From a virus, in the IMG/VR virus record IMGVR_UViG_3300045988_174813: DNA of 64,000 nucleotides. One strand, written 5' to 3'. The position numbers and the translations under genes were made by a program. The notes beneath the pieces are model-generated. The model was given only the letters and a program-made list of their open reading frames with translations. It ran no database searches and was not told where the DNA came from. Shown in pieces: positions 237 through 27,262 of the stretch (position 1 is the stretch's first letter; every line of letters begins with the position of its first letter).

Positions 237-261
237 AAAAGGGGAAGGATATGTGTCCCGC

Positions 262-306: not shown

Positions 307-423
307 AAATTTCTCCCATAAAAGGGTGGGGTTTTTCGGTTTTTCTGGCTTTTACAGGCGTTGTCAAATTTTATGTTATGTCAAATTTTTTCTAGACAAA
401 TAAAAAAATTCCAAAATAAAAAT

Positions 424-444
424 AGCAGAGTAAAATACTCTGCT
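424..444 (-). terminator. hairpin terminator directly after stop of CDS 469-954, possibly bidirectional
   Basis: AGCAGAGTA-AAA-TACTCTGCT flanked by an A-run on one side and a T-run on the other. Confidence 0.6.
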
Positions 445-468
445 ATTTTCTATATATAAAGTTGCAAC

Positions 469-954
469 TTACTCTTCAACAATAGGAAGTTGGTTCCATT
501 TTTCCAAAAATTCGTGTTCAGGAATCTCTTTAGTAAGTAAGCCCTTGAGTTCATTATAAGTTACATTGCGCGGGCCGTTCTTAGTCTGTACTGTACGGAC
601 TTCTGGCTTTAGAAGAATATCTTCTGTGGTAAGCGGAGGGTCGTGAGGCGTTTCATAGAAATTGAGCTTCCCATCTTCCTCAATTATATACCCACAGTTT
701 ACTAGGTCTGCTGGCGCGCGCCGGGCAGCATCAACTGATAATCCATATACATTTGAAAAATCTCGTGGAGAATAATCTTTCTCATAGTTATTCTGATTAG
801 ATGCAAGGTATAAGTATAGTTTGAATCCAGAGGGTGTAAGTAACCTCGCGGCAGTAGCTAATGCTTGACAGTCAATAGCAAGGTATTGCTTTTTTTCTGA
901 GAGCGGATTAGAACGGTGGATAATGATAGTCTTTTGATTTTGATAGTGAGCCAT
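469..954 (-). CDS. putative winged-helix DNA-binding protein (replication-organiser/initiator-like), 161 aa
   Basis: Intact ORF with SD (AAAGGAG) before ATG, TAA stop and two terminators downstream. The central segment FKLYLYLAS..YSPRDFSNVYGLSVDAARRAPADLVNCGYI looks like a wHTH. It sits next to iteron array 1090-1390. Function is inferred. Confidence 0.7.
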   Translation of the reverse strand: MAHYQNQKTIIIHRSNPLSEKKQYLAIDCQALATAARLLTPSGFKLYLYLASNQNNYEKDYSPRDFSNVYGLSVDAARRAPADLVNCGYIIEEDGKLNFYETPHDPPLTTEDILLKPEVRTVQTKNGPRNVTYNELKGLLTKEIPEHEFLEKWNQLPIVEE

Positions 955-1004
955 AGTGAGTACTCCTTTTTTGATAAAATAAAATGATAAACTACTGATG
1001 ATAG

Positions 1005-1060
1005 TGAGCCAGCTTTTGGCGAGCGCGCCTTAGCAAAGCGAGCCAGAAAAAGCTGGCTCA
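1005..1060. repeat. 13-bp inverted repeat in the leader of CDS 469-954
   Basis: TGAGCCAGCTTTT (1005-1017) and AAAAGCTGGCTCA (1048-1060) separated by a GC-rich 30 nt that contains a third GAGCCAG copy. Confidence 0.6.
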
Positions 1061-1089
1061 TATTTAGCTTTTTGCGCATATTTCTTTAT

Positions 1090-1390
1090 ATTACTTATGT
1101 AAATTTTACATAAGGATGTAGGAAAATTTACATAAGGATGTAGGAAAATTTACATATACTTTGCTTATTTTTCGTTTTTTTATGGTCGCTATGCGCGGCT
1201 CCTATAGCTAAATTTACATAAGGGTTAGGAAAATTTACATATACTTTGGTATACCTTATGTAAGTTTTACATAAGGTTATGGCTAATTTTACATATACCT
1301 ATAGCTAGTTTTGCGTATACCTTATGTAAAATTTGCGTATACCTATAGCTAAATTTACATATACCTTATGTAAATTTTACATATACCCTC
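1090..1390. repeat. iteron-like array, at least 15 copies of about 12 bp AWTTTACATAWRS in both orientations
   Basis: Repeated AAATTTACATAAGG / AAATTTACATATAC units. Several form palindromes such as CTTATGTAAATTTTACATAAG (1094-1116) and CCTTATGTAAGTTTTACATAAGG (1253-1276). No coding potential. Confidence 0.8.
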
Positions 1391-1405
1391 TTCTATTATA
1401 TATAT

Positions 1406-1434
1406 ATTATATCATAATTTTTAGAAAATTTCAA
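1406..1434 (-). promoter_or_regulatory. extended -10 promoter (TTGAAA-17-TGaTATAAT) reading into the iteron array
   Basis: Minus strand: TTGAAA (1429-1434), 17-nt spacer ending TGA, TATAAT (1406-1411). Confidence 0.55.
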
Positions 1435-1490
1435 ATTCTTCTCAGCTTTCGGGGATTACTCGTGCGCTCGCTCGATAGTATGCTACTTCT

Positions 1491-1519
1491 ATTATATCAT
1501 AAAATCTCCAAAAAATCAA
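1491..1519 (-). promoter_or_regulatory. extended -10 promoter (TTGATT-17-TGaTATAAT) reading into the iteron array
   Basis: Minus strand: TTGATT (1514-1519), 17-nt spacer ending TGA, TATAAT (1491-1496); shares the TTTTATGATATAAT core with promoters at 47012, 57878 and 60317. Confidence 0.55.
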
Positions 1520-1530
1520 ATTTTCTGGCG

Positions 1531-1589
1531 CAGCTCCCCAGCTCTCAAAATTTGCCTATACTCCCCGCCCAGCTTTCCAGCTTCCAGCT
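1531..1589. repeat. CAGCT-rich short repeat patch (5 copies), related to 10439-10475
   Basis: CAGCT at 1531, 1539, 1570, 1578 and 1585; CCAGCTTCCAGCTTTC resembles CCAGCTTCAGCTTTCAGCTC at 10.45 kb. Confidence 0.6.
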
Positions 1590-1833
1590 TTCTTGCGCCC
1601 AAAATTTGACAGGCCTATCCAATGTTCTCCCTATGTGGTGCGCGCATCATAAAATTTGACACGCAACAAAATTTGCGTTGGTGGTTTACGATAATAATGT
1701 TATGTAAACTTTAGTTGTGTGATGAATTAGTGATTTAGTGTGTTAGTAGTTTACTATGCTAAAGAAAATTTGACAAAAATGAAAATCTAACCTAAGATAG
1801 GTTAGATTTTGGGGTAAAAGAAAAGAGGGAAAA

Positions 1834-2016
1834 TTAGATTTCCCCCTCAATAGAATAATTTTCGTATTTATAATGTAAATCAATCTGGTATTCTTTTTCA
1901 CACTGCGGGCAATAATAGATACAACATTCTGTATGATAATCATCACCATATAAATCATCATACGTATCATCAAGAGCAAGAACCGCACCACAATTCGGGC
2001 ATCTAATCTCTTCCAT
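1834..2016 (-). CDS. small zinc-ribbon protein, 60 aa
   Basis: CPNC...CPQC pairs; last gene of a three-gene unit; start abuts the stop of the upstream gene (TAAATG). Confidence 0.65.
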   Translation of the reverse strand: MEEIRCPNCGAVLALDDTYDDLYGDDYHTECCIYYCPQCEKEYQIDLHYKYENYSIEGEI

Positions 2017-2178
2017 TTATTCTTCATCCTCCAAACAAGAATCATTATTTTCACCAGTAGGAAAATAGAAACTTCCTTTCCAGAGAGGACAATTATTAAT
2101 ACATTCCCCTTTAAGGCAATCATTTACGTTGCATCTCTCTATAAAGAAAATAATTTCCTCATTACTTAGATTTTTCAT
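2017..2178 (-). CDS. hypothetical Cys-rich protein, 53 aa (below the track cutoff)
   Basis: Hand translation MKNLSNEEIIFFIERCNVNDCLKGECINNCPLWKG...; exactly fills the gap between neighbours 2016 and 2179. Confidence 0.5.
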   Translation of the reverse strand: MKNLSNEEIIFFIERCNVNDCLKGECINNCPLWKGSFYFPTGENNDSCLEDEE

Positions 2179-2298
2179 TTACTCTTCCTCCTCATACTCA
2201 CACGGTGGAATATCTCCCGCGCACTTTGCTTCAAACTTACAAGTTGGATAACTTTCGTCCTCTTCGCACCAGCAATATGGACAATCCTTGCAACTCAT
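2179..2298 (-). CDS. hypothetical Cys-rich acidic peptide, 39 aa
   Basis: AGGAGG lies 7 nt before the internal ATG (MSCKDCPYCWCEED...). The track ORF 2179-2367 starts inside the promoter. Confidence 0.5.
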   Translation of the reverse strand: MSCKDCPYCWCEEDESYPTCKFEAKCAGDIPPCEYEEEE

Positions 2299-2438
2299 AC
2301 ACTTACCTCCTTTAGATGATACAATTATATCGCGCCCGCGCCATAAAGTCAAGAAAAACATTTCCATAACCTAACCTATCTTAGGTTAGAAATGCACCAA
2401 AAACTTTCCCTCGCTAAAGTATTAGCAAGGGAAAATTT

Positions 2439-3296
2439 TCAAATATCGGCGCGTCCTACGATGCGGAACGGGAAAGCAATAATTCCGTAGGAAAATTTTC
2501 CTTTCGTGCGCTTGTGGATAAGGGAAAAAATTTCGGTTTCTATCTCGGCATCATTCAATGCCGTGTGCGCTTCTTCAAAATCAGTTTCCCCAGTGATAAA
2601 CCGGAAAGACGTTTCCGCGCTTGTCTTGTAGTATTTCCCACTTTCGGTAATCCAACCGTTAGCTTTGCACGCTTCGCGGTAATCGTCGCTATCAAGAATA
2701 TGCTCACAAGCCAAACCCCAGAGGTCAAACAGAGGATACGACCGACCACGGAAACGGAACACTTCCGGCTCATATTCTTTCTTGGAGGTATAGCGCGTCT
2801 TGCTTGCAATGTTGTCGCAGATGCGGTTCTGGAGGGCTTCCCAGTTGTGGAAGTCTGCGCTATACAGTTTGGAAATATAAAGCTCGGTAAACGGGATTGC
2901 TTTCTTGAAGTCAAAGTTGGCGTTATAAGCTCCGACGCCTACCACGTCGGCGAGGTCTGCTTCAAGTTTTGCGGACGCTTCGCGCCACGTTGCAAGCTCA
3001 ATCGTTCCCGCTTCCAGAGCTTCAAGGTAAATCGGACGCTTAGACGCATAGTAAGCAGTATTGAAAATCGCAGGAACGGAGAAAATCTCGGTAATGAGAT
3101 AGTTACGGCGGCGATAAACGTTACCCTTGGCGTCGCAAATCGTCCAGCCCAAATCATAAATAAGCGGCTTTGCGATAGCTACGGATTTTTTCGCTTCCGC
3201 GGACAGCTCCGACGCATAGGGAAGCGTTGCGGTTTCGCAATCGAGGACGCAATAGTATTTGCGGCGGCGGTCAAGTTTCTTCTCGGCAATAGACAT
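2439..3296 (-). CDS. DEDDh 3'-5' exonuclease (DnaQ-like), 285 aa
   Basis: Exo I VLDCET, Exo II YNANFDF, Exo III HTALNDAEIE. SD AAGGAG before the ATG at 3296; the track start at 3380 is a TTG inside the -35 box. Confidence 0.8.
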   Translation of the reverse strand: MSIAEKKLDRRRKYYCVLDCETATLPYASELSAEAKKSVAIAKPLIYDLGWTICDAKGNVYRRRNYLITEIFSVPAIFNTAYYASKRPIYLEALEAGTIELATWREASAKLEADLADVVGVGAYNANFDFKKAIPFTELYISKLYSADFHNWEALQNRICDNIASKTRYTSKKEYEPEVFRFRGRSYPLFDLWGLACEHILDSDDYREACKANGWITESGKYYKTSAETSFRFITGETDFEEAHTALNDAEIETEIFSLIHKRTKGKFSYGIIAFPFRIVGRADI

Positions 3297-3441
3297 AATA
3301 TATACTCCTTTTCTGTCGGGGCGTAACTTCTTTTCCCTCCTGACATTATATATATTACCACACCCTATACAGGAAGTCAAGAAAAATGTGTCCGGCTTCT
3401 AACCTATCTTAGGTTAGAAAAATTCCAAAAAAAGCAGGGAA

Positions 3442-3813
3442 TTACTCCCCTGCTTTTTCTTCCTCTGCCTTTTCCGCCTTGGCTTTTTCCTTTTCGGCTT
3501 TCTTCCGTTCCCGCTCGGCTTCTTTGCGCTTCCGTTCGGCTTCCTTGGCTTCGGCTTTCTCCGCCTTGTCTGCGAGCTTGGCGCGATACTCGTTAGCGAG
3601 CGCGTAACCGTCCGTGCCGTCCTCTTCGTCGGCTTTCTTCGGGATAATCACCGACAGCTTCACCCACCTATCCTCCCCAGCTTCGACAGTCGGGAACATA
3701 AGCGTTCCGGAAGCGGTCTGCATGACCTCTTCGCCGTCCTCCGTGAGAACTTCCACCAGACGCGCAAGCATGCGCGCACGCAGAGCATCATTCACATTTA
3801 CTTTCTTTTCCAT
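3442..3813 (-). CDS. hypothetical protein with K/E-rich C-terminal tail, 123 aa
   Basis: Intact ORF, AGGAGG SD, own promoter and palindrome; tail is KAEKAEAKEAERKRKEAERERKKAEKEKAKAEKAEEEK. Confidence 0.7.
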   Translation of the reverse strand: MEKKVNVNDALRARMLARLVEVLTEDGEEVMQTASGTLMFPTVEAGEDRWVKLSVIIPKKADEEDGTDGYALANEYRAKLADKAEKAEAKEAERKRKEAERERKKAEKEKAKAEKAEEEKAGE

Positions 3814-3928
3814 TTGGGATACCTCCTTTATCTTTGTGAGTATATGATACTATATATTGAGGGAAAAGTCAAGAAAAACTTTCGGTAGTTCTAACCTATG
3901 TTAGGTTAGATATAGATGGCTCGCGCCA

Positions 3929-4147
3929 TCAATGAATAGTGAGTTCTACATCGAGTTTTTCGACAAAATCAGAGTTCTCAAAAGAAGCGAAACTACCATC
4001 CGCAATATTTACTGTATTGCACAAAATATTTTTTGACATGCAAAATTTCGTCCGCATATAGAGTTCGCCTTCCCAAGAAAAAACTTCTCCAACTTTGACG
4101 AGTTCAAATACCATATTGCTCTTTCTTCTCGTATCATTGACCTGCAT
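3929..4147 (-). CDS. paralog family 1 member, 72 aa
   Basis: MQVNDTRR..GEVFSWEGELYMR..LCNTVNIADG..VEKLDVELTIH; close paralog of 5125-5343; own promoter, SD and palindrome. Confidence 0.75.
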   Translation of the reverse strand: MQVNDTRRKSNMVFELVKVGEVFSWEGELYMRTKFCMSKNILCNTVNIADGSFASFENSDFVEKLDVELTIH

Positions 4148-4176
4148 TATACGTTCCTCCTTTATTTTGTAATCTT

Positions 4177-4205
4177 ATTATATCAAATCTCTTTAGTTGT
4201 GTCAA
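4177..4205 (-). promoter_or_regulatory. representative early promoter (TTGACA-17-TATAAT) 6 nt downstream of palindrome 4212-4232
   Basis: Minus strand: TTGACA 4200-4205, TATAAT 4177-4182, AGGAGG about 4157-4162, ATG 4147. The same layout precedes nearly every early gene. Confidence 0.75.
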
Positions 4206-4243
4206 TTGTAGTCTAACCTATATTAGGTTAGAATAGTTGGGTG

Positions 4244-4462
4244 TCAGAATGACACCCGTGCGGGAATGGGAATAACTTCCGTATCGACATTGTAAGAGTG
4301 AAAAACGCCGTCGGAAAGAGAAACTGCATTGAGGTAGCAATCTTCTTTTTCGTCGAAGACAACTTCGGTTTTCATAAGCAGACGCTTATCCGCATTGTTT
4401 GCAAGAAGAAAGCATTCACCTTTAGACAATTCCCCAAAAGAATTACTAGTTTCAATAATCAT
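4244..4462 (-). CDS. paralog family 1 member (divergent), 72 aa
   Basis: ..GECFLLAN..LLMKT..NAVSLSDG.. matches the family pattern; own promoter, SD and palindrome. Confidence 0.7.
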   Translation of the reverse strand: MIIETSNSFGELSKGECFLLANNADKRLLMKTEVVFDEKEDCYLNAVSLSDGVFHSYNVDTEVIPIPARVSF

Positions 4463-4569
4463 ATTATTTCCTCCTTTTCTTTATGGTCGTATTATACTAT
4501 ATTATACGCGCATTGTCAACTAATCTCTAACCTATATTAGGTTAGAAGCCTCCAAAAAATTGTCTACCC

Positions 4570-5007
4570 TCAACCGAGGGCAGACAAAATTTCCATAATC
4601 TGCGACGGGTCAAAACTGTATTCTCCCCAGTTTTCGCGGTTCTTCTCTTCATCATCGAAAAGAATATCTTCCGCGCCGAGCTTGAAAGTTTCTTTCGGTG
4701 TGCCATACTCTACGACGTGGATAGCGTCCCACTTGACAGAGTGGAGATGCTTGTCAAGCCATTTCTTTTTGGCTTCGCGCACGGCTTCAAGATAGGCTTT
4801 CGAGCTTGTCTTGCTTCCCCACGAGATAACGCCGATAGTGTAGCCTGCGCGGTGGAGCTTGTTGAGCTTGCGCGCGAGCGTGCGCATATCACCGAGCGGT
4901 CGCGCCTGGGCATAGGGTCTTGGATTTTCTGCGCGAAGCATAGAAAGCCAATTTTCCACGGCGTAAAGGTCTGAAATTGTGCCGTCCATATCGAACCAAA
5001 TCGTCAT
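4570..5007 (-). CDS. HAD-superfamily phosphatase (5'(3')-deoxyribonucleotidase-like), 145 aa
   Basis: N-terminal FDMDGT (DxDxT) motif; size and later D-rich motif (FDDEE) fit small HAD nucleotidases. Confidence 0.7.
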   Translation of the reverse strand: MTIWFDMDGTISDLYAVENWLSMLRAENPRPYAQARPLGDMRTLARKLNKLHRAGYTIGVISWGSKTSSKAYLEAVREAKKKWLDKHLHSVKWDAIHVVEYGTPKETFKLGAEDILFDDEEKNRENWGEYSFDPSQIMEILSALG

Positions 5008-5124
5008 TTCGTTGTGTCCTCCTTTATCTTTGTGAGTATATGATACTACATAATGAGTAAAAAGTCAAGAAAAAATTGTGTGGTTTCTAACCTATATTAG
5101 GTTAGATTATGATGGCTTATGCCA

Positions 5125-5343
5125 TCAATGAATAATGAGTTCTGTATCGAGTTTTTCAACAAGCTCGGAATTTGCAAAGTAAACCAACATGCCATCCGCA
5201 ATATCGACTGTATTACACAAAGTATCACCAACTTTGCAAGGTCGTATCCTCATCCAAAGTTTACCCTCCCAACAAAAAACTTCTCCTTTTTTGATTGCTT
5301 CAAAAAAAACGTGTTCTTTCATTCTCGTATCTTTGACTTGCAT
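5125..5343 (-). CDS. paralog family 1 member, 72 aa
   Basis: MQVKDTRM..GEVFCWEGKLWMR..LCNTVDIADG..VEKLDTELIIH. Confidence 0.75.
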   Translation of the reverse strand: MQVKDTRMKEHVFFEAIKKGEVFCWEGKLWMRIRPCKVGDTLCNTVDIADGMLVYFANSELVEKLDTELIIH

Positions 5344-5466
5344 TATAGTTTCCTCCTTTATTTTGTAATTGTATTATACTCCACTATGCACTCCTTGTCA
5401 ACTATCCTCTAACCTATTTTAGGTTAGAAACCCTCCAAAAAAGAGAGGGGAGAAAACTCCCCTCAC

Positions 5467-5832
5467 TTACTCCGCGTCCACGTCCGCGGGATGGGCAACG
5501 TAACACTTCTGCGCGCCCTTGCCCTTGACCTTGACATCCTCCACGTCAAGCTCACCGAGCGCGACAAGCTGACGGAGCAGGGCGGACGCCTTAGGTGTGG
5601 ACAGCTCAAGCTCCACAGCGACCTCGGAGGCGAGACGCTTCTTGTTGTCGTCCATCAGATTGCGGATGGCGTCGAGGATGGGCGCGTTTTCGGCGAGCTT
5701 CTTGGAGTTGACGCGAGCCGAAGCCTTTTCGCGCTCTTTGGTAAGCTGGTCAAGCATAGCCTGCGCCTTTTCGTTCATTTCGTCGGAGAGGTTCGCGCTA
5801 ATCACGTTCGCAAAAAATTCCTTATTGGTCAT
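5467..5832 (-). CDS. hypothetical protein with C-terminal winged-helix-like domain, 121 aa
   Basis: GC-rich ORF. ..LASEVAVELELSTPKASALLRQLVALGELD.. resembles MarR-type wHTH. Separate terminator at 5445-5464 plus T-run. Confidence 0.65.
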   Translation of the reverse strand: MTNKEFFANVISANLSDEMNEKAQAMLDQLTKEREKASARVNSKKLAENAPILDAIRNLMDDNKKRLASEVAVELELSTPKASALLRQLVALGELDVEDVKVKGKGAQKCYVAHPADVDAE

Positions 5833-5991
5833 GATGTATTCCTTTCTGGTTTTTCGGTCTTGTCCTTGACCTTGAATTTTAGGGGATTTTGTATCCCCCT
5901 TACGAGTATTATATTACCACATACTCTAAAAAATTGCAAGCAAAATTTTTTGGGTTCTAACCTATTTTAGGTTAGAATGGAAGTGGAGGAA

Positions 5992-6267
5992 TTATTCCTC
6001 CACTTCATCATTTGCGAGCCGAACCTCATAGGGCCCATACACGTCATCATCTTCTGCTTTTTCGTGTGCCCAATCTTCAAATTGCAGGCGCGCCTCTTCG
6101 CGGTCTGCGTCGGTAAACTCAAAGATTTCATCAATGTAATAGTTTTCTTCAAGAAAAACATTGAAGTTATCTTTTGTTTTCCAATCGTCCACAAGACCAT
6201 TGAAGTATTCTTCGTGCGCGCGGTCGGACATCATGTCATTGTCGAAAGAACTATACCATACTGTCAT
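5992..6267 (-). CDS. highly acidic small protein (paralog family 2), 91 aa
   Basis: AGGAGG before the ATG at 6267 (MTVWYSSF...); about one third D/E; shares the EEYF..W..ENY..EIF pattern with 7900-8151. Confidence 0.7.
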   Translation of the reverse strand: MTVWYSSFDNDMMSDRAHEEYFNGLVDDWKTKDNFNVFLEENYYIDEIFEFTDADREEARLQFEDWAHEKAEDDDVYGPYEVRLANDEVEE

Positions 6268-6366
6268 TTGGGTATCCTCCTTTGTCTTTGTGAGTATACT
6301 ATACCACACTTTGCGCGGAGTGTCAATTCTCTTCTAACCTATATTAGGTTAGATGCCCAATTGGAA

Positions 6367-6765
6367 TTATTTTCCAATCGGGCAGACAGTAAGTCCGCGT
6401 TCTTTGAGATACTGAATTGCAATAGTGGCATCGTAATAATCAAAAATTTCTTTGAGACTTGCTTCATATGGGATATAATTGTATTCCACTACAAGGGTAT
6501 GCGGTTTTTTATCAAGAGAACTCCACATAAAAGGTTTACTTTCCACTTCCAGCCCATAAAATTCTTTTTTGAAAAGTTTCTTCCATGTCCATGTGAAGAC
6601 GCCTGCGTTTGCTGGAAGAGAATCAATAGCTTCTTTGAGATTAGTGAATGTCCAGGTTTTTGTGCTGATGTCGGCTTCATCTGCAAGAACAAAGCCATGT
6701 GTGCGGGACTGCATTTCTTCTCCATCAAAGAGAACGCGCACCTTGAGACGATAAGACTTAATCAT
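6367..6765 (-). CDS. hypothetical protein, 132 aa
   Basis: SD AAAGGGGA before the ATG at 6765 (MIKSYRLKV...). The longer track ORF starts inside the promoter. Confidence 0.65.
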   Translation of the reverse strand: MIKSYRLKVRVLFDGEEMQSRTHGFVLADEADISTKTWTFTNLKEAIDSLPANAGVFTWTWKKLFKKEFYGLEVESKPFMWSSLDKKPHTLVVEYNYIPYEASLKEIFDYYDATIAIQYLKERGLTVCPIGK

Positions 6766-6871
6766 TGGTTTATCCCCTTTCTTTTGATGATACAAATATA
6801 CCATATTTGCACTATAAAGTCAATCCCTATCTAACCTAATATAGGTTAGAAAAATAAGGGGCATAAGTCCC

Positions 6872-7189
6872 TTACTTCATAATTGCATAATTTTTTGCAT
6901 ACCAGAATTTTTCTGGAATTTCCATAACCGTGATAAGCACGATACCCTCTTCAACCTTGCCATAGATAAATACATAATTTTTATACACTTTGAAAAACTG
7001 ATTGTTCCCGCGGAATTTTTCAGCCGTATATCTCAAGTAGCTTTCAAACGGCGTTCCCTCGTAGCGTTCAAACTCTACTCCGCGCGCGTAGGCTTGGCGC
7101 GCGATTTTAGATATAGAAATATTGTAGGTGAGATTTTTGCGCTCGCGCCATCTTTTGAAAGCGTGGTCTGAAATGATAATGGTTTCCAT
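6872..7189 (-). CDS. hypothetical protein, 105 aa (weak resemblance to DUF4258-type small toxins)
   Basis: The N-terminal ISDHAFKRWRER motif is reminiscent of the H-A-x-x-R-x-x-E-R signature. Resemblance only, not verified. Confidence 0.55.
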   Translation of the reverse strand: METIIISDHAFKRWRERKNLTYNISISKIARQAYARGVEFERYEGTPFESYLRYTAEKFRGNNQFFKVYKNYVFIYGKVEEGIVLITVMEIPEKFWYAKNYAIMK

Positions 7190-7298
7190 AATTTTGGGAT
7201 ACCTCCTTTTCTTTATGGTCTTATTATACCATATGGAAAGAAAAAGTCAACACCCCTCTAACCTATGTTAGGTTAGAAATGCGCGCGGTCTCCGCGCG

Positions 7299-7514
7299 TT
7301 AGTGGATGACAAGGTCAGCATCGACGAACCGAACGACTTCATCTCCCATGAAGCAAGTAATTGTACCATCCTCAAGACAAATTGCGTTATATATATGACC
7401 ATTAGAGACGGTCTCTCTGAACCTCATAAAAATGCTATTGTTATATTCAAAAATTCCGCCTACGTCTACGTCGTCAAAAAAATGATTCTCATTTTCTTTT
7501 CTAATAATATTCAT
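7299..7514 (-). CDS. paralog family 1 member, 71 aa
   Basis: AGGAGG before the ATG at 7514 (MNIIRKEN..GGIFEYNNSIFMR..NAICLEDG..DADLVIH). Confidence 0.7.
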   Translation of the reverse strand: MNIIRKENENHFFDDVDVGGIFEYNNSIFMRFRETVSNGHIYNAICLEDGTITCFMGDEVVRFVDADLVIH

Positions 7515-7621
7515 AACTTGTTCCTCCTTTATTTTGTAATTATAATATACCATAAAAAATTCCAACTGTCAATACCACTCTAACCTAATATAGGTTAGAA
7601 TTTATGCTGGCTCGCGCCAGC

Positions 7622-7798
7622 TTAGTAGATAGAATATTCAGCTTCCAGGCGCCAGCTCTCACTCTCGCGCAGTTCCATTTCTACGAGCGTTGGCATCTGA
7701 CCAATGAGTGCCATGAGTTGCTTTCCGATGTCTATCGTAGTGATGTAGGGCAAACGTTGCGCGGGCATATCTTTGAACCATGCGGTAAGTGTATACAT
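7622..7798 (-). CDS. hypothetical protein, 58 aa (below the track cutoff)
   Basis: GGGAGG SD 7 nt before ATG; MYTLTAWFKDMPAQRLPYITTIDIGKQLMAL...; replaces plus-strand track ORF 7604-7873, which has no signals. Confidence 0.55.
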   Translation of the reverse strand: MYTLTAWFKDMPAQRLPYITTIDIGKQLMALIGQMPTLVEMELRESESWRLEAEYSIY

Positions 7799-7899
7799 TT
7801 GGAATACCTCCCTTTACTTTGTACTGTAAGTATACTATATCTATACGAAAAAGTCAACCCACTTCTAACCTAAGATAGGTTAGAAAAAAAAGAGGAAGA

Positions 7900-8151
7900 T
7901 TACTCTTCCTCTTCCATGGGTTCATAGTCCATGTCCTCAATAGCCTCTTCCCGCACAGCGTCATAAAACTCTTCGTAAACGTTCTGCCGTTCCATCTCGC
8001 ACATAGAGAAAATCTCGTGAGCGTTATAGTTTTCATCAATCCAGCGCTCAAAGAAATACTCATCCAGTTGCGCCTCCATCTCTTCCTCTACCAGCTCGTC
8101 AAAACGCTCCTCGTCAATAACCTCACCAGTGATAGCATGCTTGTACATCAT
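7900..8151 (-). CDS. highly acidic small protein (paralog family 2), 83 aa
   Basis: 31 of 83 residues are D/E by hand count; DEYFFERWIDENYNAHEIF matches 5992-6267. Confidence 0.7.
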   Translation of the reverse strand: MMYKHAITGEVIDEERFDELVEEEMEAQLDEYFFERWIDENYNAHEIFSMCEMERQNVYEEFYDAVREEAIEDMDYEPMEEEE

Positions 8152-8315
8152 AGTAAAATACCTCTTTTCAAATATTTGAGACGTTCGGTTTGTTTCCTCT
8201 ATCTCTTTACATTATGAATTATACTATATATCGTCCCGAATGTCAACTCATTTCTAACCTATAATAGGTTAGAATATATCCTGCGCAGAAACTAAAAGTG
8301 CCCCTATTGGGGCAC

Positions 8316-8519
8316 TTATTTGAGCACCTTACACTCACGAATCTCAAAAGGCTTGACCCCATTATTATCCGACAATGATTTCCACCACCGTTCAGGGGTG
8401 AGCCATTTCTGCTGGTTCTCTGTGGCAAAACAATCATATAGCGTGTTGATTGCGTCTTTCTTGTTGTTGGCAACTGCGAAAAACGGATGTCCACTTGTTG
8501 TTCTAAAAACTGCTACCAT
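8316..8519 (-). CDS. hypothetical protein, 67 aa
   Basis: SD AAGGAGAAG before the ATG at 8519 (MVAVFRTTSGHPFF...). Confidence 0.6.
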   Translation of the reverse strand: MVAVFRTTSGHPFFAVANNKKDAINTLYDCFATENQQKWLTPERWWKSLSDNNGVKPFEIRECKVLK

Positions 8520-8641
8520 ATCTTTCTTCTCCTTTTGGTTATTTCTTTTATCTTTGTGATTATAATATACCATACTTTTAGAAAGAAGTCAACTAACTTC
8601 TAACCTATATTAGGTTAGAAAAGGATTGATGGCTCGCGCCA

Positions 8642-8863
8642 TCAAATCCGAACCGTGATGTCAGCCCTCACCGGCATGACAATGGTACCGGAGTCATACA
8701 CCGTCATCTCACAGGTGTCAAAATCAAATGCATTGCGTCTCCAGCCGTCACTGGTGTAGGTGTCTGCCAGTTTGAGGCACGGCTTGCCGCAACAAAGAAA
8801 AGTGTCGCCAACTTTCAGTTCACTAAATTCGACGGTTTTACGGTACTGATAAAAGATGTTCAT
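8642..8863 (-). CDS. paralog family 1 member (divergent), 73 aa
   Basis: MNIFYQYRK..VGDTFLCCGKPCLKL..; same length class and G-[DE]-x-F core; stop sits in a GATGGC-N4-GCCATC hairpin as in 3929 and 5125. Confidence 0.6.
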   Translation of the reverse strand: MNIFYQYRKTVEFSELKVGDTFLCCGKPCLKLADTYTSDGWRRNAFDFDTCEMTVYDSGTIVMPVRADITVRI

Positions 8864-8971
8864 TGGTATATCCCCTTTCAAGTTTGTATACACATTATAA
8901 CGCATATGCGCCCGTTTGTCAACCGGTTTCTAACCTATTTTAGGTTAGAAGTCCCCCTTGCGGGGGAACGC

Positions 8972-9157
8972 TTACCGCATATCCTGTCCCATATAGATAA
9001 ATTCCACACGCTTACCGACAAGATTGTGCTCCTGTCTGAACTTTTTCTTAGCGGTAGTCATAGAATACCCATAATAGACAGTATGCGCGCCGTCATAGCA
9101 AAAAGTAAGAGACGCGTTGCGCGGATTGGAACTGATGAACACGGTAGACATAGACAT
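8972..9157 (-). CDS. hypothetical protein, 61 aa
   Basis: AGGAGG SD, own promoter and palindrome. Confidence 0.6.
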   Translation of the reverse strand: MSMSTVFISSNPRNASLTFCYDGAHTVYYGYSMTTAKKKFRQEHNLVGKRVEFIYMGQDMR

Positions 9158-9302
9158 GGTAGAAACCTCCTTGTTTTTATACTTGAATTATACTATATGA
9201 TTATGGGATAGTCAAGAAAAAAATTCCCATATCTAACCTATATTAGGTTAGAAAAAATTGCAAAAAAAATTCCATACCATTATGGGATACAAAAAATTGC
9301 AA

Positions 9303-9358
9303 GAAAAAATTCCATTGCGCGGGCACCATAAAATTACTACAAAGTATGGTGTCCGCGC
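9303..9358 (-). terminator. hairpin terminator after CDS 9373-9540
   Basis: 14-bp stem GCGCGGGCACCATA / TATGGTGTCCGCGC (one mismatch) followed on the minus strand by a T-run. Confidence 0.55.
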
Positions 9359-9372
9359 CGTGTATGTATGTC

Positions 9373-9540
9373 TCAATATCTTACTTCTGTATAAAGATGT
9401 GCTACGCCAGAAATCAGAGAATACACACCTACTAACTCTTGAATTATAAACCGCGCCATAGAAATATTGCCCATATCAATCGCGCCAACACTACCAAAAA
9501 TAAGTGCAATCCCAACAATGATTTTTATCCATTTACTCAT
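9373..9540 (-). CDS. small membrane protein, 55 aa, two predicted TM segments
   Basis: SD AAGGAGAG before the ATG at 9540; MSKWIKIIVGIALIFGSVGAI...LVGVYSLISGVAHLY. Confidence 0.6.
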   Translation of the reverse strand: MSKWIKIIVGIALIFGSVGAIDMGNISMARFIIQELVGVYSLISGVAHLYTEVRY

Positions 9541-9644
9541 TAGAATACTCTCCTTTCGTTTTCTACTTATAGTATATATTATGGAAACCAAATTGTCAAT
9601 ACAGAATTATGTGAACCGCGCGAAACTCTAACCTATATTAGGTT

Positions 9645-9693
9645 AGAAAATATAGTGAAAAGAAACTTCACTACGGTAAAGTAGTGAAGTTTC
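9645..9693 (-). terminator. canonical rho-independent terminator after CDS 9700-9864, immediately followed by palindrome 9627-9647
   Basis: 13-bp stem GAAACTTCACTAC/GTAGTGAAGTTTC (9662-9693), then TTTTCACTATATTTTC on the minus strand. Confidence 0.75.
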
Positions 9694-9699
9694 CTCTAC

Positions 9700-9864
9700 T
9701 TAGTACGTATCGTACCCCATCATTTCCGCCGTGTAATCATCATCAATGGAAATAAATTCCGGGTCGTCAAAATAGAAATAAGCGATTTGGTCGGCGCTGT
9801 CGATGCTGTTGGCGACCACATAGAAATATTCTCCGGTCTGATTGTCATAATACAAATAATTCAT
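9700..9864 (-). CDS. hypothetical acidic protein, 54 aa (below the track cutoff)
   Basis: Hand translation MNYLYYDNQTGEYFYVVANSIDSADQIAYFYFDDPEF...; SD AAGGGGAAA; bracketed by a promoter and a terminator. Confidence 0.55.
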   Translation of the reverse strand: MNYLYYDNQTGEYFYVVANSIDSADQIAYFYFDDPEFISIDDDYTAEMMGYDTY

Positions 9865-10036
9865 AGTAGTTTCCCCTTGTATTTAGTTTGTGGACAAGGA
9901 ATAGGGGTCGGATGGCGGTATCACATAACGCTCTCCATCGGGTCTTTTTCCCTGTCCACATTATGAATTATACCACATTATATGGAAAAGTCAAATGGTT
10001 TCTAACCTATTTTAGGTTAGAATTATGGGATAGGAA

Positions 10037-10066
10037 AAACTTTTCCACACTAAAGTGGAAAAGTTT
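10037..10066 (-). terminator. hairpin terminator after CDS 10077-10247, followed by palindrome 10001-10021
   Basis: 12-bp stem AAACTTTTCCAC/GTGGAAAAGTTT, T-rich 3' side on the minus strand. Confidence 0.5.
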
Positions 10067-10076
10067 CCCCAAAAAA

Positions 10077-10247
10077 TTACTGGTCAATGGTGTATTCGAT
10101 TTTCCCCGTCTTGTCATTTTTCACGACAACCACGCCCGCGCCCGGAAAAGTGGCATAATTTTCGGCAAGATTTTTTGCGGTTTTGAGGGTTGCCACGCCA
10201 GAATGAAATACGGTGCGAGATTTGAAATTGATTTCGATAGTGTACAT
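10077..10247 (-). CDS. hypothetical protein, 56 aa (below the track cutoff)
   Basis: GGAGGT SD 7 nt before ATG; MYTIEINFKSRTVFHSGVATLKTAKNLAENYATFPGAGVVVVKND... Confidence 0.55.
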   Translation of the reverse strand: MYTIEINFKSRTVFHSGVATLKTAKNLAENYATFPGAGVVVVKNDKTGKIEYTIDQ

Positions 10248-10438
10248 TGTATGTACCTCCTTGATTTATTGTACCTATATGATACTATATATATACTATA
10301 TTGTCAATACCCTATCGGGATATTTCTAACCTATGTTAGGTTAGAAAAAAATTTGAGCGGGACAAAATTTCCAGCCTGTAGCTTTCATACTTTAGTGTAT
10401 GAAAGTACGGGCTCTCGCGCGGGTGCGCGAAAAAATTT

Positions 10439-10475
10439 CCAGCTCAGCTCCAGCTTCAGCTTTCAGCTCAGCTCC
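10439..10475. repeat. CAGCT short repeat patch (6 copies)
   Basis: CCAGCTCAGCTCCAGCTTCAGCTTTCAGCTCAGCTCC; related to 1531-1589. Confidence 0.7.
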
Positions 10476-10568
10476 CCTGTGAGTGGTAGGTGATGGGTGG
10501 GTTATGGGTGCATAATATATATACTATGGGCGCGCTTTGCACCTTGACGCCAAATTTCTACTTTATCC

Positions 10569-10614
10569 TGCTAAATCGTTATACTTTCGCGTGCTAAATC
10601 GCTACACTTTCACG
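10569..10614. repeat. tandem 23-bp direct repeat x2
   Basis: TGCTAAATCGTTATACTTTCGCG / TGCTAAATCGCTACACTTTCACG (20 of 23 identical). Confidence 0.8.
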
Positions 10615-10662
10615 ATGTAAAGTGCGACAGTTTATTACACTAAAGTATTATTCCATACTACA

Positions 10663-10691
10663 ATTATAACACATAATGCATAGATATGCAA
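10663..10691 (-). promoter_or_regulatory. early-type promoter (TTGCAT-17-TATAAT) 17 nt downstream of palindrome 10709-10729
   Basis: Minus strand: TTGCAT 10686-10691, TATAAT 10663-10668. Confidence 0.55.
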
Positions 10692-10912
10692 GAAAAATTT
10701 CCCCCGTTTCTAACCTATATTAGGTTAGAGAATATTTATGCATTTTGGGCGCGAATAATGCATAAACATTCAAAAAATCATAGGTTAGAAACGATTTTTT
10801 GCATAAATATTCATGCATAATATTCATGCATATTCATTCATTATGTATGGATATTTATGCAAAGTTGATTATAGGATGTATACTTTCATGCTTTAGTGTA
10901 CTAAAGTGACAG

Positions 10913-10944
10913 GATAAAAAAAGAGAGACGGATTACTCCGTCTC
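10913..10944 (-). terminator. rho-independent terminator overlapping the stop of CDS 10933-11172
   Basis: GAGACGGA-TTAC-TCCGTCTC (10925-10944) followed on the minus strand by TCTTTTTTTATCC. Confidence 0.8.
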
Positions 10945-11172
10945 CCTCTTGTTTCTCTTGCCAAACCAGTATTCGGCGTCAATTTCCGGCATATCCATAC
11001 CAGCGTACCAGTCATGCCGGTAGAAAATGTCGTATTCATCGACAACGTCGACAACGAACCAGTACGCATTTTCGGCCTCATTAATACTCACAAAACCGCG
11101 CTCTTTAATGACGCCGGTAGTGTTGGAACGGATACGAACGACAGCATTGTACTTTTTGATTTTGCTTTTCAT
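10933..11172 (-). CDS. hypothetical protein, 79 aa
   Basis: Intact ORF with a strong terminator; SD GGAG upstream. Confidence 0.65.
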   Translation of the reverse strand: MKSKIKKYNAVVRIRSNTTGVIKERGFVSINEAENAYWFVVDVVDEYDIFYRHDWYAGMDMPEIDAEYWFGKRNKRETE

Positions 11173-11220
11173 TTTTCAAACTCCTATCTAAAATTTGTAT
11201 TTTGGGATATGGCGGATTTT

Positions 11221-11493
11221 TCAATCCGCCATATCTTCCAACAACCAGCTAAAATGCTTAACCAAAATAGGCAAGTATTCAACAGCGTCATCCGCCAACA
11301 TATAGGCGGCGATCATATCGCTATTGTAGGCGATCTGCCGTTCGATCATGCCATAGCGCTTGCGGTTGTCTTTCGTGATAGGCTTGCTATTCAACATCTC
11401 AAGCGTTTTCTCAAGTGCCCTATTTTCTTTTCGCAAGGTTTCAAGGGTGTTTTCGATCTGATCGTTCATGCGTTCCATAGTAGCAATTTTCAT
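11221..11493 (-). CDS. hypothetical coiled-coil protein, 90 aa
   Basis: Intact ORF; heptad-like N-terminus (NDQIENTLETLRKENRALEKTLEML). Confidence 0.6.
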   Translation of the reverse strand: MKIATMERMNDQIENTLETLRKENRALEKTLEMLNSKPITKDNRKRYGMIERQIAYNSDMIAAYMLADDAVEYLPILVKHFSWLLEDMAD

Positions 11494-11555
11494 TTTACAT
11501 AAACCCCTATTCTTTATTTGTTGGGCGCGGTTTGCCCGCGCCCTTGTAGCTTAGT

Positions 11556-11813
11556 TTACGGCCTGTCGTATTTCGGGGATACACTGACAACCAATTCCCC
11601 GTCACCAATGCCAAAATCAAAGATACTGTAATCACGATCAAGCGCGTTGATATCGCGCACGGTAACGCCGTAATCGTCAACTAATTTACCGTCAACGACA
11701 TAGCCCGTAAGCGCAACGCGAAACGGCCTATAGTGGTAAACTTTTAAGCGCATAGGTTTACCGAAATTGTAACGCATGATAAAATCATTAAGCTCCATTT
11801 TTACACACTCCAT
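11556..11813 (-). CDS. hypothetical protein, 85 aa (alternative start at 11798)
   Basis: Intact ORF. GGAG lies 9 nt before the second ATG (MELNDF...), so 11798 may be the true start. Confidence 0.6.
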   Translation of the reverse strand: MECVKMELNDFIMRYNFGKPMRLKVYHYRPFRVALTGYVVDGKLVDDYGVTVRDINALDRDYSIFDFGIGDGELVVSVSPKYDRP

Positions 11814-11859
11814 TCTTATTTATGCGGCGCGGGAATGTATCCCGCGCCGCTTTTGCTTG

Positions 11860-12438
11860 TTAATCAATCAGTGCATAGGACAAAAGCACGGCTTTTTCGT
11901 CAGTGCTCCACGTCTTGCTGATATCAATTTTGCCTTGCGGCGTAGCGCGGTTTTTCCATCTACTATGCGGCGTTAAAATAGCTTTAATAGCCAATTCAAA
12001 AGCAACGCCGTCATAACCGCAATAACCACTATCCGGTTTTTCAACTTTTTCAAGTTGCTTGTTGAAAAGCTCTATGAATTCCGTTTCACTGATAATGTAT
12101 CCCATTTCAGCGAGAACGTCAAAGAGCTTGTCATGTTCCGACACCCAATTACGGATACGCATTTCAGATTTATTTCCCGCGGCGGCGCGATAGGTGACGC
12201 CGTTCTCACAGCTCCACTTGAACACGCGGAAACGATAGGTTTTCTTGTCCGTATCAAAACGGATAAGCTCCGCGCCGTAGCCGCCGGTAAGCATATCCCG
12301 CACACTCTCTTTGTGCATGAGAATGGCGTTCCGGTACAGCTCCGCGGGAGTGTAGCCAAACGACAATACCGTAAGCGCCGGGTTGTTGCGTTCGTTTTCC
12401 GTGAAGTTGCTAATATTTGTTTTAATCTCAAGTTTCAT
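11860..12438 (-). CDS. hypothetical protein, 192 aa, first gene of the leftward early unit
   Basis: Intact GC-rich ORF, GGAG SD, GC-rich hairpin 11824-11850 downstream; no family recognised. Confidence 0.7.
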   Translation of the reverse strand: MKLEIKTNISNFTENERNNPALTVLSFGYTPAELYRNAILMHKESVRDMLTGGYGAELIRFDTDKKTYRFRVFKWSCENGVTYRAAAGNKSEMRIRNWVSEHDKLFDVLAEMGYIISETEFIELFNKQLEKVEKPDSGYCGYDGVAFELAIKAILTPHSRWKNRATPQGKIDISKTWSTDEKAVLLSYALID

Positions 12439-12640
12439 TGTTTTAGCTCCATTCTTTAATATGATAAAGTACAGCTTAGCGTTTTGGCGGTTATTGCCAC
12501 GCTACAACATCCCCGCACCGTTGCGAAAAGGGTATAGTAACCCCTTTGCCGGCGCTCCGTCCTTGCGCGATTTACGCAAACGCATATTTACTTGACAAAG
12601 AACACCCGCCGCCGGAACTCTCGTTCCCTTGACTGTGCCC

Positions 12641-12669
12641 ATATTAACATATGCTCTAACCTATGTCAA
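12641..12669 (-). promoter_or_regulatory. leftward promoter (TTGACA-17-TAATAT) with a TCTAACCTA half site in its spacer
   Basis: Minus strand: TTGACA 12664-12669, TAATAT 12641-12646; about 195-nt GC-rich leader to the ATG at 12438. Confidence 0.5.
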
Positions 12670-12724
12670 GCACTTTTTTCGATTTTTAAAAACTTTTTTT
12701 CGCCGTGCTTATGGCGTTCTAAGC

Positions 12725-12734
12725 GGGGGGGGGG
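12725..12734. repeat. G10 homopolymer tract
   Basis: Ten consecutive G in the divergent intergenic region. Confidence 0.9.
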
Positions 12735-12744
12735 CATATCCCGC

Positions 12745-12772
12745 GCCCTTGCCCTTGCCCTTGCCCTTGCCC
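12745..12772. repeat. hexamer tandem repeat (GCCCTT) x4.5
   Basis: GCCCTTGCCCTTGCCCTTGCCCTTGCCC. Confidence 0.9.
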
Positions 12773-12847
12773 GTGACGGGGGAAGGTTTTCCGGCAGGCG
12801 GGCACACACGAATCGTGTACCCCGCCTACCTGGTACATTCTCTTCAC

Positions 12848-27250: not shown

Positions 27251-27262
27251 GGGTGGTGAATT

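Follow-up and report, generated by a model that had tools for sequence, protein, structure and literature searches.

Palindromes at whole-turn distances from near-consensus early promoters in a large gut phage and their possible role as operators of a phage-encoded regulator

Is the 21-bp palindrome TCTAACCTA-N3-TAGGTTAGA, which recurs ahead of small early genes in the IMG/VR virus record IMGVR_UViG_3300045988_174813, an operator for a DNA-binding protein, a structure acting in RNA, or only a joint for recombination? The stretch that was analysed as a whole, hereafter the window, comprises 64,000 nucleotides (nt) and is part of a large tailed phage. By pattern search the palindrome was found 22 times in the window, against 0.01 copies expected from shuffles, and all copies are confined to positions 1786-10729, an array of about 9 kb of small early genes. 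An earlier note on this DNA, made from the sequence alone and covering positions 2347-10729, had started the set at 2370 and missed the 22nd copy (1786-1806), which lies outside that range and has only a weak promoter match.

The genes of the array are on the minus strand, and the -35 element therefore appears as GTCAA on the plus strand. Read along the minus strand, each unit begins with the stop codon of the upstream gene, continues with a GC-rich hairpin, often with a T-run, and then with the palindrome, the gap and a promoter of the near-consensus sigma-A type, made of TTGAC(A/T), a spacer of 17 nt (16 in two units) and a TATAAT-like hexamer; after the -10 there are typically 25-100 nt, followed by AGGAGG and ATG. 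This cassette stands ahead of almost every small early gene in the array, and 18 of the 20 array proteins scanned gave no Pfam match. When the promoter matches of the window are ranked by strength, 14 of the top 22 are linked to a palindrome, the other eight being without one. The palindrome lies 3' of the terminator hairpin of the previous gene and 5' of the next predicted start, so that it should be mostly untranscribed. The distances on the flanks are loose (11-587 nt from stop codon to palindrome, 25-415 nt from -10 to ATG), whereas the gap to the -35 is exactly 6 nt in 12 units.

The gaps were taken in two ways, by direct extraction and by an independent consensus scan, and the results agree: in 21 of the 22 units the palindrome is upstream of the -35 hexamer, without overlapping it, at 6 nt (n = 12), 16 nt (n = 2), 17 nt (n = 6) or 27 nt (n = 1). 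The twelve 6-nt units listed in the earlier note (4212-10001) and its eight units at 16-17 nt were both borne out, the gap being 17 nt at 2370, 3398, 3890, 5086, 10325 and 10709 and 16 nt at 5956 and 9232; its description of T-tracts also holds, with six of these eight gaps ending in TTTTTC before TTGAC or TTGCA, the 5956 unit having TTTTGC and the 10325 unit none. The unit at 9627, reported there as an outlier of 30 nt, has instead a gap of 27 nt, that is 6 + 21, or two turns; the step of one turn proposed between two classes thus stands, but the classes number three. With the -35 hexamer set as -35 to -30, the centres of the palindromes fall at -52, -62/-63 and -73, each class one turn from the next.

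When public collections were scanned for the exact pattern, 61 loci came up, of which 2 were viral, 53 metagenomic and 6 genomic but unrelated; together with the window they hold 401 palindromes, of which 349 have a promoter match of >=9/12 on one side. A programmatic extraction of all spacings, suggested as a check in the earlier note, gave quantised gaps in the window and likewise in the 349 pooled units: 6 nt in 179; 16, 17 and 18 nt in 21, 102 and 2; 26 and 27 nt in 1 and 35; and elsewhere 4 nt (1), 9 nt (6), 29 nt (1) and 38 nt (1). In other words, 340 of the 349 units are at 6, 16-18 or 26-27 nt and none is at 10-15 or 19-25 nt. The pooled units hold 70 distinct gap sequences in the 6-nt class, 68 in the 16-18-nt class and 23 in the 26-27-nt class, and the inserts fall into eight or more unrelated families at 16-17 nt and into four or more at 26-27 nt. 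When the units were clustered by single linkage at 30% edit distance, which is very conservative, 19 clusters were obtained, 17 of them with a gap other than 6; in these 17 clusters the value (gap - 6) concentrates at multiples of 10.5-11 bp (Rayleigh test with a 10.5-bp period, R = 0.83, p ~9e-6). A gap whose length is kept while its sequence is free reads as the mark of a spacing constraint, as for the spacer between -35 and -10.

As for the content of the gaps, T-tracts occur in 78% of the long-gap units, while T4 occurs in 0% of the 6-nt gaps, which mostly start with a purine. The extra DNA of the long gaps is mostly an A/T tract, in the form ..GAAAnTTTTTC in the lineage of the window, and is UP-element-like. 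Most promoters of the units are consensus or one base off, their spacers measure 17 nt and the -10 is often extended; the cores of the long-gap class are slightly weaker, with TTGACT in 64% and TATCAT or TAATAT in about half. A second operator, GGAAAnTTTTC, was considered in the long gaps and rejected, its copies being too few and too loose, and it was treated as A/T tract. Looping between neighbouring palindromes was also rejected, the distances between palindromes being without 10-11-bp periodicity.

Distant arrays were reached using as anchor the gene for a 285-aa exonuclease-like protein (2439-3296), whose copies in the phages fetched are 62-70% identical. Each distant array has a palindrome of its own, placed as in the window and built likewise of two 9-bp arms around 3 nt, and retains quantised gaps, which at six distant loci (L062, L063/L064, L065/L066, L068, L069 and L070) are of 7-9, 17-20 and 28-29 nt. 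In L062 the palindrome is TTTAGACTA-N3-TAGTCTAAA, with gaps of 7 nt in 11 units, 6 nt in one and 17-18 nt in eight; in L063/L064 it is TTTAGACGT-N3-ACGTCTAAA, with 8 nt in 13 units, 7 nt in two, 18 nt in two and 39 nt in one; in L065, TTTGGACGT-N3-ACGTCCAAA, with 8 nt in 13 units, 18-19 nt in five, 29 nt in one and 36 nt in one, the last retaining a half-site at the standard 8 nt; in L068, TTTAGACGG-N3-CCGTCTAAA, with 8 nt in 10 units and 7, 9 and 18 nt in one each; in L069, again TTTAGACGT-N3-ACGTCTAAA, with 17-18 nt in 16 units and 7 nt in one; and in L070, ATTAGACGT-N3-ACGTCTAR, with 8-9 nt in 13 units, 18-20 nt in seven and 28-29 nt in two. The extra DNA of the long class in L065, L069 and L070 is TTTTnnGAAAAnn, UP-element-like once more. 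At the orthologous promoter of the exonuclease gene the gap is 17 nt in the window, 18 in L063, 7 in L068, 17 in L069 and 29 in L070; the spacing classes thus interconvert by whole turns.

Between lineages all copies of the palindrome changed together, while in the lineage of the window the 18 arm positions are invariant in the 349 copies, bar one position in one cassette family, and the three central bases are variable. The anatomy of the units, the quantisation of the gaps and its persistence from lineage to lineage, and the joint change of all operator copies are direct observations. A cultivated distant relative, Enterococcus phage EF1 (MF001358, 4500-9500; our L071), has an exonuclease homologue 31% identical and an array of small genes, each with a consensus TTGACA-17-TATACT/TATAAT promoter after A-rich sequence; no conserved palindrome was found in this EF1 locus.

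A single half-site occurs in a separate promoter upstream of the array, here called P_reg (12641-12669, minus strand), in which TTGACA (12664-12669) is directly followed by the half-site TAGGTTAGA (12655-12663), inside the 17-nt spacer, and then by TAATAT (12641-12646), the whole reading TTGACA-TAGGTTAGAGCATATGT-TAATAT. The layout is kept in two relatives with the same palindrome, and distant lineages repeat it with their own half-site (TTGCAA-TTTAGACGC.. in L063, TTGACA-TTTAGACGG.. in L068 and TTGAAA-TA-TTTAGACGC.. in L069). A protein on the half-site in this spacer would occlude the polymerase, which implies a repressor mode.

After P_reg and a leader of about 190 nt comes a gene for a 192-aa protein (11860-12438, minus strand), belonging to a fast-evolving family upstream of the array that is present in the window lineage and in four distant ones (L063, L065, L068 and L069), where its members have 157-213 aa and are 16-46% identical. 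The gene gave no Pfam, PHROG or PDB sequence match, and it is a purely positional candidate for an autoregulated palindrome-binding regulator. In several lineages the half-site promoter is separated from the first gene by a long GC-rich leader of ~150-330 nt (window 12440-12640, minus strand; L063 ~2320-2480; L069 ~160-382); it had no Rfam match and could be a structured RNA.

Within the array, the sole protein with a DNA-binding fold is a winged-helix protein of 121 aa (5467-5832), which matched Pfam FeoC/MarR_2 at ~2e-3 and has homologues with MarR_2/TrmB matches; its AlphaFold model (pLDDT 68) predicts a C-terminal winged helix, for which Foldseek found wHTH regulators at E ~4e-3. Among 32 homologues there is hardly any variation in the putative recognition helix, KASALLRQLV. 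Two more distant phages, L073 (4856-11272) and L074, share this winged-helix protein and have another 9-3-9 palindrome, AGTAGTCTR-N3-YAGACTACT, whose spacing to a sigma-70-like promoter is not fixed. The hexamer TAGTCT/AGACTA in this palindrome is that of L062 in everted order, and the TTAGA/TCTAA of the window palindrome is everted relative to the palindromes of L062-L070.

What could such a site do? Judging from sequence comparison, we hold with good confidence that the palindrome is a protein operator acting at the DNA level, and the earlier note's view of a protein site phased to the polymerase, rather than an RNA structure, gains support from the phasing, the fixed arms and the distant lineages. 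We suggest that a dimeric DNA-binding regulator, specific to the lineage and most likely encoded by the phage, has the 21-bp palindrome as its operator, and that the palindrome forms part of a portable cassette in which a terminator hairpin, the operator and a near-consensus sigma-A promoter follow each other. Distances of whole turns would keep the bound protein on one side of the helix, facing the promoter-bound RNA polymerase. In the short class the operator would span -42 to -62, where the C-terminal domain of the polymerase alpha subunit (alpha-CTD) normally binds; in the longer classes the UP-like A/T tract between operator and -35 would provide a site for this domain. A regulator made early would contact or displace the alpha-CTD at the near-consensus promoters and in this way turn the early array off, the repression exerted by phi29 p4 at A2c serving as a model for action through the alpha-CTD, and the same protein would repress the promoter at 12641-12669 by direct occlusion. 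Protein binding, contact with the polymerase and the sign of regulation are what we infer here. To the model as a whole, namely a phage-encoded dimeric regulator whose operator is phased to the polymerase and acts negatively through the alpha-CTD, in a cassette that is also a crossover point, we give an even chance.

The sign of regulation is the weakest part of the model. Given a protein operator at the DNA level, a negative effect seems somewhat more probable than a positive one, because core promoters that match or nearly match the consensus should be active alone, because in EF1 a comparable array of consensus promoters functions without any palindrome, and because the half-site promoter implies a repressor mode. 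Action through the alpha-CTD, in turn, is suggested because the operator is upstream, non-overlapping and phased.

Several points weigh against this proposal. An upstream, non-overlapping and phase-locked site has the classical geometry of an activator, such as CRP at class I promoters, and regulation could accordingly be positive. Promoters, starts of transcription and terminators alike are predictions. The palindrome is also able to form a hairpin (-7 to -10 kcal/mol; 9-bp stem and 3-nt loop, -9.2 kcal/mol), and several of the upstream hairpins are without a T-run, so that some read-through transcripts would include it. Moreover, no palindrome-binding protein was identified among the window candidates examined: the AlphaFold model of the 192-aa protein (pLDDT 45) is unusable and its fold not recognisable, and the 121-aa winged-helix protein was rejected as the determinant of specificity, the same recognition helix occurring with a different palindrome (L073, L074) or with none (L072).

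The opposite sign has therefore to be weighed against a repressor. CRP acts from -61.5 and -72.5 at class I promoters and also from -41.5, and its dimeric site is active only at whole-turn positions; the palindrome centres lie on the same face of the helix as these three positions. An activator of class I type, encoded by the phage and placed at -52, -62.5 or -73, could recruit the polymerase via the alpha-CTD, and it would find in the long-gap class both an UP-like A/T tract separating the operator from the -35, a feature of class I promoters too, and the somewhat weaker cores described above. Most of the promoters, on the other hand, are so close to consensus, also in their 17-nt spacers and the often extended -10, that an activator should not be needed, EF1 has its similar consensus array without any palindrome, and the half-site in the promoter spacer indicates occlusion. 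We consider such an activator, which would make the array delayed-early or keep it active after shutdown of host transcription, unlikely.

A different question is whether the palindrome regulates at all. When the window was compared with its relatives, 151 of 309 ends of homology blocks (49%) were no more than 15 nt away from the centre of a palindrome, against 7.6% of random positions, and 88% against 38% were within 80 nt. The cassettes are therefore joints where related phages exchange early genes, and they serve as crossover points because each shares about 60 bp of operator and promoter. Block ends at palindromes far above chance, and the precedent of the PeSL cassettes of T4-like phages (PMC2839356, PMC4122927), would fit a palindrome and promoter that are only a recombination module of PeSL type, the spacing classes being founder effects of a few ancestral cassettes. 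The gap sequences, however, are saturated with substitutions while their lengths are exact, the insert families at 16-17 and 26-27 nt are unrelated, and the quantisation persists in lineages where the palindrome has changed; moreover, shared sequence is enough for homologous recombination, which has no need of perfect symmetry around three free central bases, and the concerted switch of all copies to a new palindrome is left unexplained. Recombination alone fails to explain the perfect palindrome, the phasing and the concerted change of sequence, and a palindrome without regulatory role is in our opinion improbable.

Nor does a role limited to insulation recommend itself. A bound protein might stop read-through from the upstream cassette, like the stoperators of mycobacteriophages, and leave initiation downstream unregulated: each transcription unit is separated from the next by a site, some of the upstream hairpins have no T-run and are possibly leaky, the 1786 copy, without promoter, could mark the boundary of the array, and stoperators are a precedent for many repressor sites across a phage genome (PMC9283540). 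For a roadblock, nevertheless, an exact and helically phased distance to the next -35 is unnecessary, and the palindrome is symmetric, whereas stoperators are asymmetric and orientation-dependent (PMC9283540); we see little likelihood in this explanation.

The palindrome could finally act in RNA. Where outer arm positions vary within a genome, Watson-Crick pairs between positions 1 and 21 were 76, against 77.7 expected, and between positions 2 and 20 they were 117, against 114 expected, so that the two halves vary independently. In most units no U-run follows the palindrome as it does in an intrinsic terminator, TTTT being present only after the 1786-type copy and some 27-nt-gap units. Rfam gave no match in the window at the gathering threshold, and at the E-value threshold nothing credible around 10300-10950 and 12400-13050. 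Single copies of the same 21-bp palindrome, with GTTTTTTT directly after, are also found in Metabacillus genomes (L003-L006, L008), which are unrelated Bacillota chromosomes; these are ordinary intrinsic terminators, unrelated to the phage element. That the palindrome, which folds and closely trails the upstream gene, is an extruded hairpin or works in the upstream transcript as a 3'-end stabiliser, second terminator or processing site, as the Metabacillus terminators and the few TTTT runs might suggest, is very improbable, because it stands anywhere from 11 to 587 nt after the preceding stop codon or hairpin but at an exact distance from the -35 that follows, most copies come after a GC-rich terminator hairpin of its own kind, the gaps mostly open with a purine and no T-run, the arms are invariant where an RNA stem would vary with compensation, the variable outer positions change independently in the two halves, and helical phasing to a promoter is meaningless for an RNA element.

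Returning to the operator of a dimeric, probably repressing regulator, a wider picture can be drawn, though we regard it as rather doubtful. The regulators could form a hitherto unrecognised phage family, acting only from one face of the helix beside the host polymerase, with the protein of 11860-12438 as the regulator of the window; operator and protein specificity would have been switched repeatedly between related gut phages that recode TAG (at least five operator variants), giving regulatory incompatibility groups, with the cassette as the unit of exchange.

The units, all on the minus strand, are distributed as follows. The first and most upstream (10663-10729) has the palindrome at 10709-10729, a 17-nt gap with T-tract, TTGCAT at 10686-10691 and TATAAT at 10663-10668. 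Five others have a 17-nt gap: 10279-10345 (palindrome 10325-10345, no T-tract, TTGACA 10302-10307, TATCAT 10279-10284); 5040-5106 (palindrome 5086-5106, T-tract, TTGACT 5063-5068, TATCAT 5040-5045); 3844-3910 (palindrome 3890-3910, T-tract, TTGACT 3867-3872, TATCAT 3844-3849); 3352-3418 (palindrome 3398-3418, T-tract, TTGACT 3375-3380, TAATAT 3352-3357), which would drive the exonuclease-like gene 2439-3296; and 2324-2390 (palindrome 2370-2390 with one arm mismatch, ..TTAGG, gap ending in TTTTTC, TTGACT 2347-2352, TATAAT 2324-2329, centre at about -63). A 16-nt gap is found in 9187-9252 (palindrome 9232-9252, T-tract, TTGACT 9210-9215, TATAAT 9187-9192) and 5911-5976 (palindrome 5956-5976, gap ending in ..TTTTGC, TTGCAA 5934-5939, TAATAT 5911-5916), and the two-turn gap of 27 nt in 9571-9647 (palindrome 9627-9647, TTGACA 9594-9599, TATACT 9571-9576, centre at about -73). 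The terminal unit at the end of the array (1748-1806) has the palindrome at 1786-1806, a gap of 9 nt, weak TTGTCA (1771-1776) and TAAACT (1748-1753), and no gene after it.

The 6-nt units are 9967-10021 (palindrome 10001-10021, TTGACT 9989-9994, 16-nt spacer, TATAAT 9967-9972); 8894-8949 (palindrome 8929-8949, TTGACA 8917-8922, TATAAT 8894-8899); 8564-8619 (palindrome 8599-8619, TTGACT 8587-8592, TATATT 8564-8569); 8218-8273 (palindrome 8253-8273, TTGACA 8241-8246, TATAAT 8218-8223); 7829-7884 (palindrome 7864-7884, TTGACT 7852-7857, TATACT 7829-7834), with a terminator abutting at 7888-7915; 7544-7599 (palindrome 7579-7599, TTGACA 7567-7572, TATATT 7544-7549); 7223-7277 (palindrome 7257-7277, TTGACT 7245-7250, 16-nt spacer, TATAAT 7223-7228); 6795-6850 (palindrome 6830-6850, TTGACT 6818-6823, TATATT 6795-6800); 6298-6353 (palindrome 6333-6353, TTGACA 6321-6326, TATAGT 6298-6303); 5373-5428 (palindrome 5408-5428, TTGACA 5396-5401, TATAAT 5373-5378), with a terminator upstream at 5445-5464; 4491-4546 (palindrome 4526-4546, TTGACA 4514-4519, TATAAT 4491-4496), with a terminator just upstream at 4560-4587; and 4177-4232 (palindrome 4212-4232, TTGACA 4200-4205, TATAAT 4177-4182, centre at about -52).

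Other repeats accompany the array. The promoter of the first unit (10663-10691) is followed by about 300 nt without open reading frame (ORF), 10350-10660, dense in short repeats, among them, on the minus strand, AGCTGA-type repeats at 10438-10475, two copies of TGCTAAATCGCTAC at 10559-10614 and three of CACTAAAGT; AGCTGA-like repeats are also seen at the start of the array in L063 and L065. Just upstream of the first palindrome, positions 10740-10865 are rich in ATGCAT and contain 13-bp repeats (TGCATAATATTCA, three copies) as well as a solo half-site, ATAGGTTAGAA, at 10781-10791, which has the same context in L002. Additional copies of a promoter-like GGAATTTTTTcTTGCAA / ATTATGGGATA motif are at 9253-9330, within 9253-9372. 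A conserved hairpin TGGC-GCGA-GCCA with a GNRA-type loop (one copy reads GGCATAAGCC) and without T-run occurs on the minus strand at 3911-3935, 5107-5131, 7600-7625 and 8620-8645; it overlaps the stop codons of 3929-4147 and 5125-5343, which are paralogous small genes (~72 aa), and further copies are at the 3' ends of 7622-7798 and 8642-8863, while a third paralogue, 7299-7523, has a stop without this hairpin. On the plus strand, 12847-12929 consists of 5.9 perfect tandem copies of the 14-bp CAAACCTAAAATTC, which run exactly up to the -35 of a promoter on that strand (TTGAAA-18-TATAAT, 12929-12958); the recoded late block starts there. The 14-bp unit includes AACCTAAAAT, that is the inner part of a palindrome arm plus the centre, and its copy number in relatives is about 5 (L021), 2 (L025) and 1 (L032).

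As to the phage itself, the window carries a gene for the alpha subunit of DNA polymerase III (43008-46979, minus strand), whose best named relative is YorL of Bacillus phage SPbeta (37% identity), together with genes for topoisomerase II subunits, ribonucleotide reductase, a DnaB-type helicase and a primase. The terminase (~16161-17741) is 26% identical to SPbeta YonF, and in tblastx/tblastn comparison of the window with the 50-100 kb region of SPbeta nothing else was shared; megablast of positions 1-12000 against GenBank phages gave no match. Related contigs are 110-136 kb long and come from human and animal gut metagenomes. A host among the Bacillota is pointed to by the sequence, because the promoters are consensus TTGACA/TATAAT and the ribosome-binding sites AGGAGG, in agreement with the host guess for a similar published group (PMC10607447).

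The late/structural block (13000-40500, plus strand) is readable only with TAG as a sense codon, whereas the standard code suffices for the early array and the replication block; the longer ORFs so obtained include 27260-34321 (2353 aa, tape-measure-like) and 35405-39769 (1454 aa), and the summed length of ORFs of at least 100 aa, overlapping frames counted, rises from 0.53 to 1.12 of the region. No suppressor tRNA was found in the window, where the tRNA search returned no tRNA at all. The ribonucleotide reductase large subunit (47075-50474, minus strand) is split into the start of the barrel domain (49665-50474) and a C-terminal part (47075-48523), separated by about 1.1 kb, and the split may be due to an intron, an intein or the insertion of a homing endonuclease. 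At 1101-1387 there are iteron-like 22-bp direct repeats of the TTTACATA type, adjoining a gene for a 161-aa protein (469-954, minus strand) with a weak HTH_36 match; they may represent a replication origin with its initiator.

The control of early genes in uncultivated gut phages is essentially unknown, notably in large TAG-recoded siphoviruses near SPbeta. A regulon of about 20 promoters per genome, spaced in one-turn steps and replicated with different operators, is rare comparative evidence for regulation from one face of the helix, and the natural promoter series offers ready constructs for studying how a regulator controls promoters that are already consensus. Since the palindrome was not found in its array, Enterococcus phage EF1 is not a ready experimental model. 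The cassette would account for the swapping of early 'host-takeover' genes, the concerted change of the operator gives a handle for finding the regulator by covariation, and the palindrome is a precise marker to find and delimit the early region in metagenomic contigs of the group.

A description of these palindromes was not found in the literature, and the paper on the related phAss-1 group is silent on promoters, palindromes and repeats (PMC10607447). A close functional parallel comes from SPbeta, in which SPBRE, a repeated imperfect palindrome of 15-20 bp in intergenic promoter regions, was experimentally shown to be the operator of the master repressor MrpR/YopR (PMC10516654). As here, the element is repeated in the promoter regions of many genes, in the very phage that has the best named polymerase relative, and at aimR and yonX it is 6-7 nt upstream of the -35. 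MrpR is a repressor with the tyrosine-recombinase fold. SPBRE, however, is mostly between the -10 and the ribosome-binding site and forms no phase-locked series, about 10 sites are bound in SPbeta against 22 palindromes here, and the consensus derived from seven SPbeta promoter regions, ~AAATACAAAWAATATGTATA, has no resemblance to TCTAACCTA-N3-TAGGTTAGA. An MrpR homologue as binder was rejected, none being found in the 64-kb window, which is about half of a genome of roughly 130 kb (tblastn best E = 0.03). By analogy, the system of the window would work like SPBRE/MrpR, of which it is not a member.

The PeSL cassettes of T4-like phages consist of a terminator and a consensus early promoter, flank small orphan genes in the hyperplastic region and are crossover points for shuffling (PMC2839356, PMC4122927). 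Here, too, a composite of stem-loop terminator and sigma-70-type early promoter flanks orphan genes, and the cassettes are junctions of insertion, deletion or replacement between related phages (151/309 block ends). In PeSL, however, the conserved stem-loop is the G/C-rich terminator itself, whereas here the GC-rich terminators are separate and variable, and an invariant AT-rich 21-bp palindrome is added at a quantised distance from the -35, in another phage group and another host phylum.

The stoperators of Cluster A mycobacteriophages are similar in that one site has many copies per phage genome; they are dozens of sites for the immunity repressor in short intergenic regions, and site and repressor co-evolve between phages (PMC9283540, PMC6550527). 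Stoperators are asymmetric, depend on orientation and affect elongation (PMC9283540); they measure 13 bp, are bound by monomers and work within transcription units. Phasing to the -35 is absent in them, unlike the site of the window, which is a perfect palindrome between a terminator and the next promoter.

As regards placement, there is a likeness to CRP at class I promoters and to phi29 p4 at A3 and A2c: a site of dimeric type upstream of the -35, without overlap and at whole-turn positions, and in the longer classes an alpha-CTD/UP-like stretch in between. According to PMC11806353 and its references 77 and 84, p4 represses A2c, which has a strong -35, through the alpha subunit, and factors stabilising the polymerase repress strong promoters generally. 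There is no sequence or protein relationship to these systems, and contact with the polymerase is here a deduction from placement; moreover, the spacing rules there came from engineered insertions at one promoter, whereas here the series is natural and counts about 20 promoters per genome. The finding is thus a variant of known operator-promoter cassettes rather than a new principle, and what distinguishes it is an unusually clean natural spacing series across lineages.

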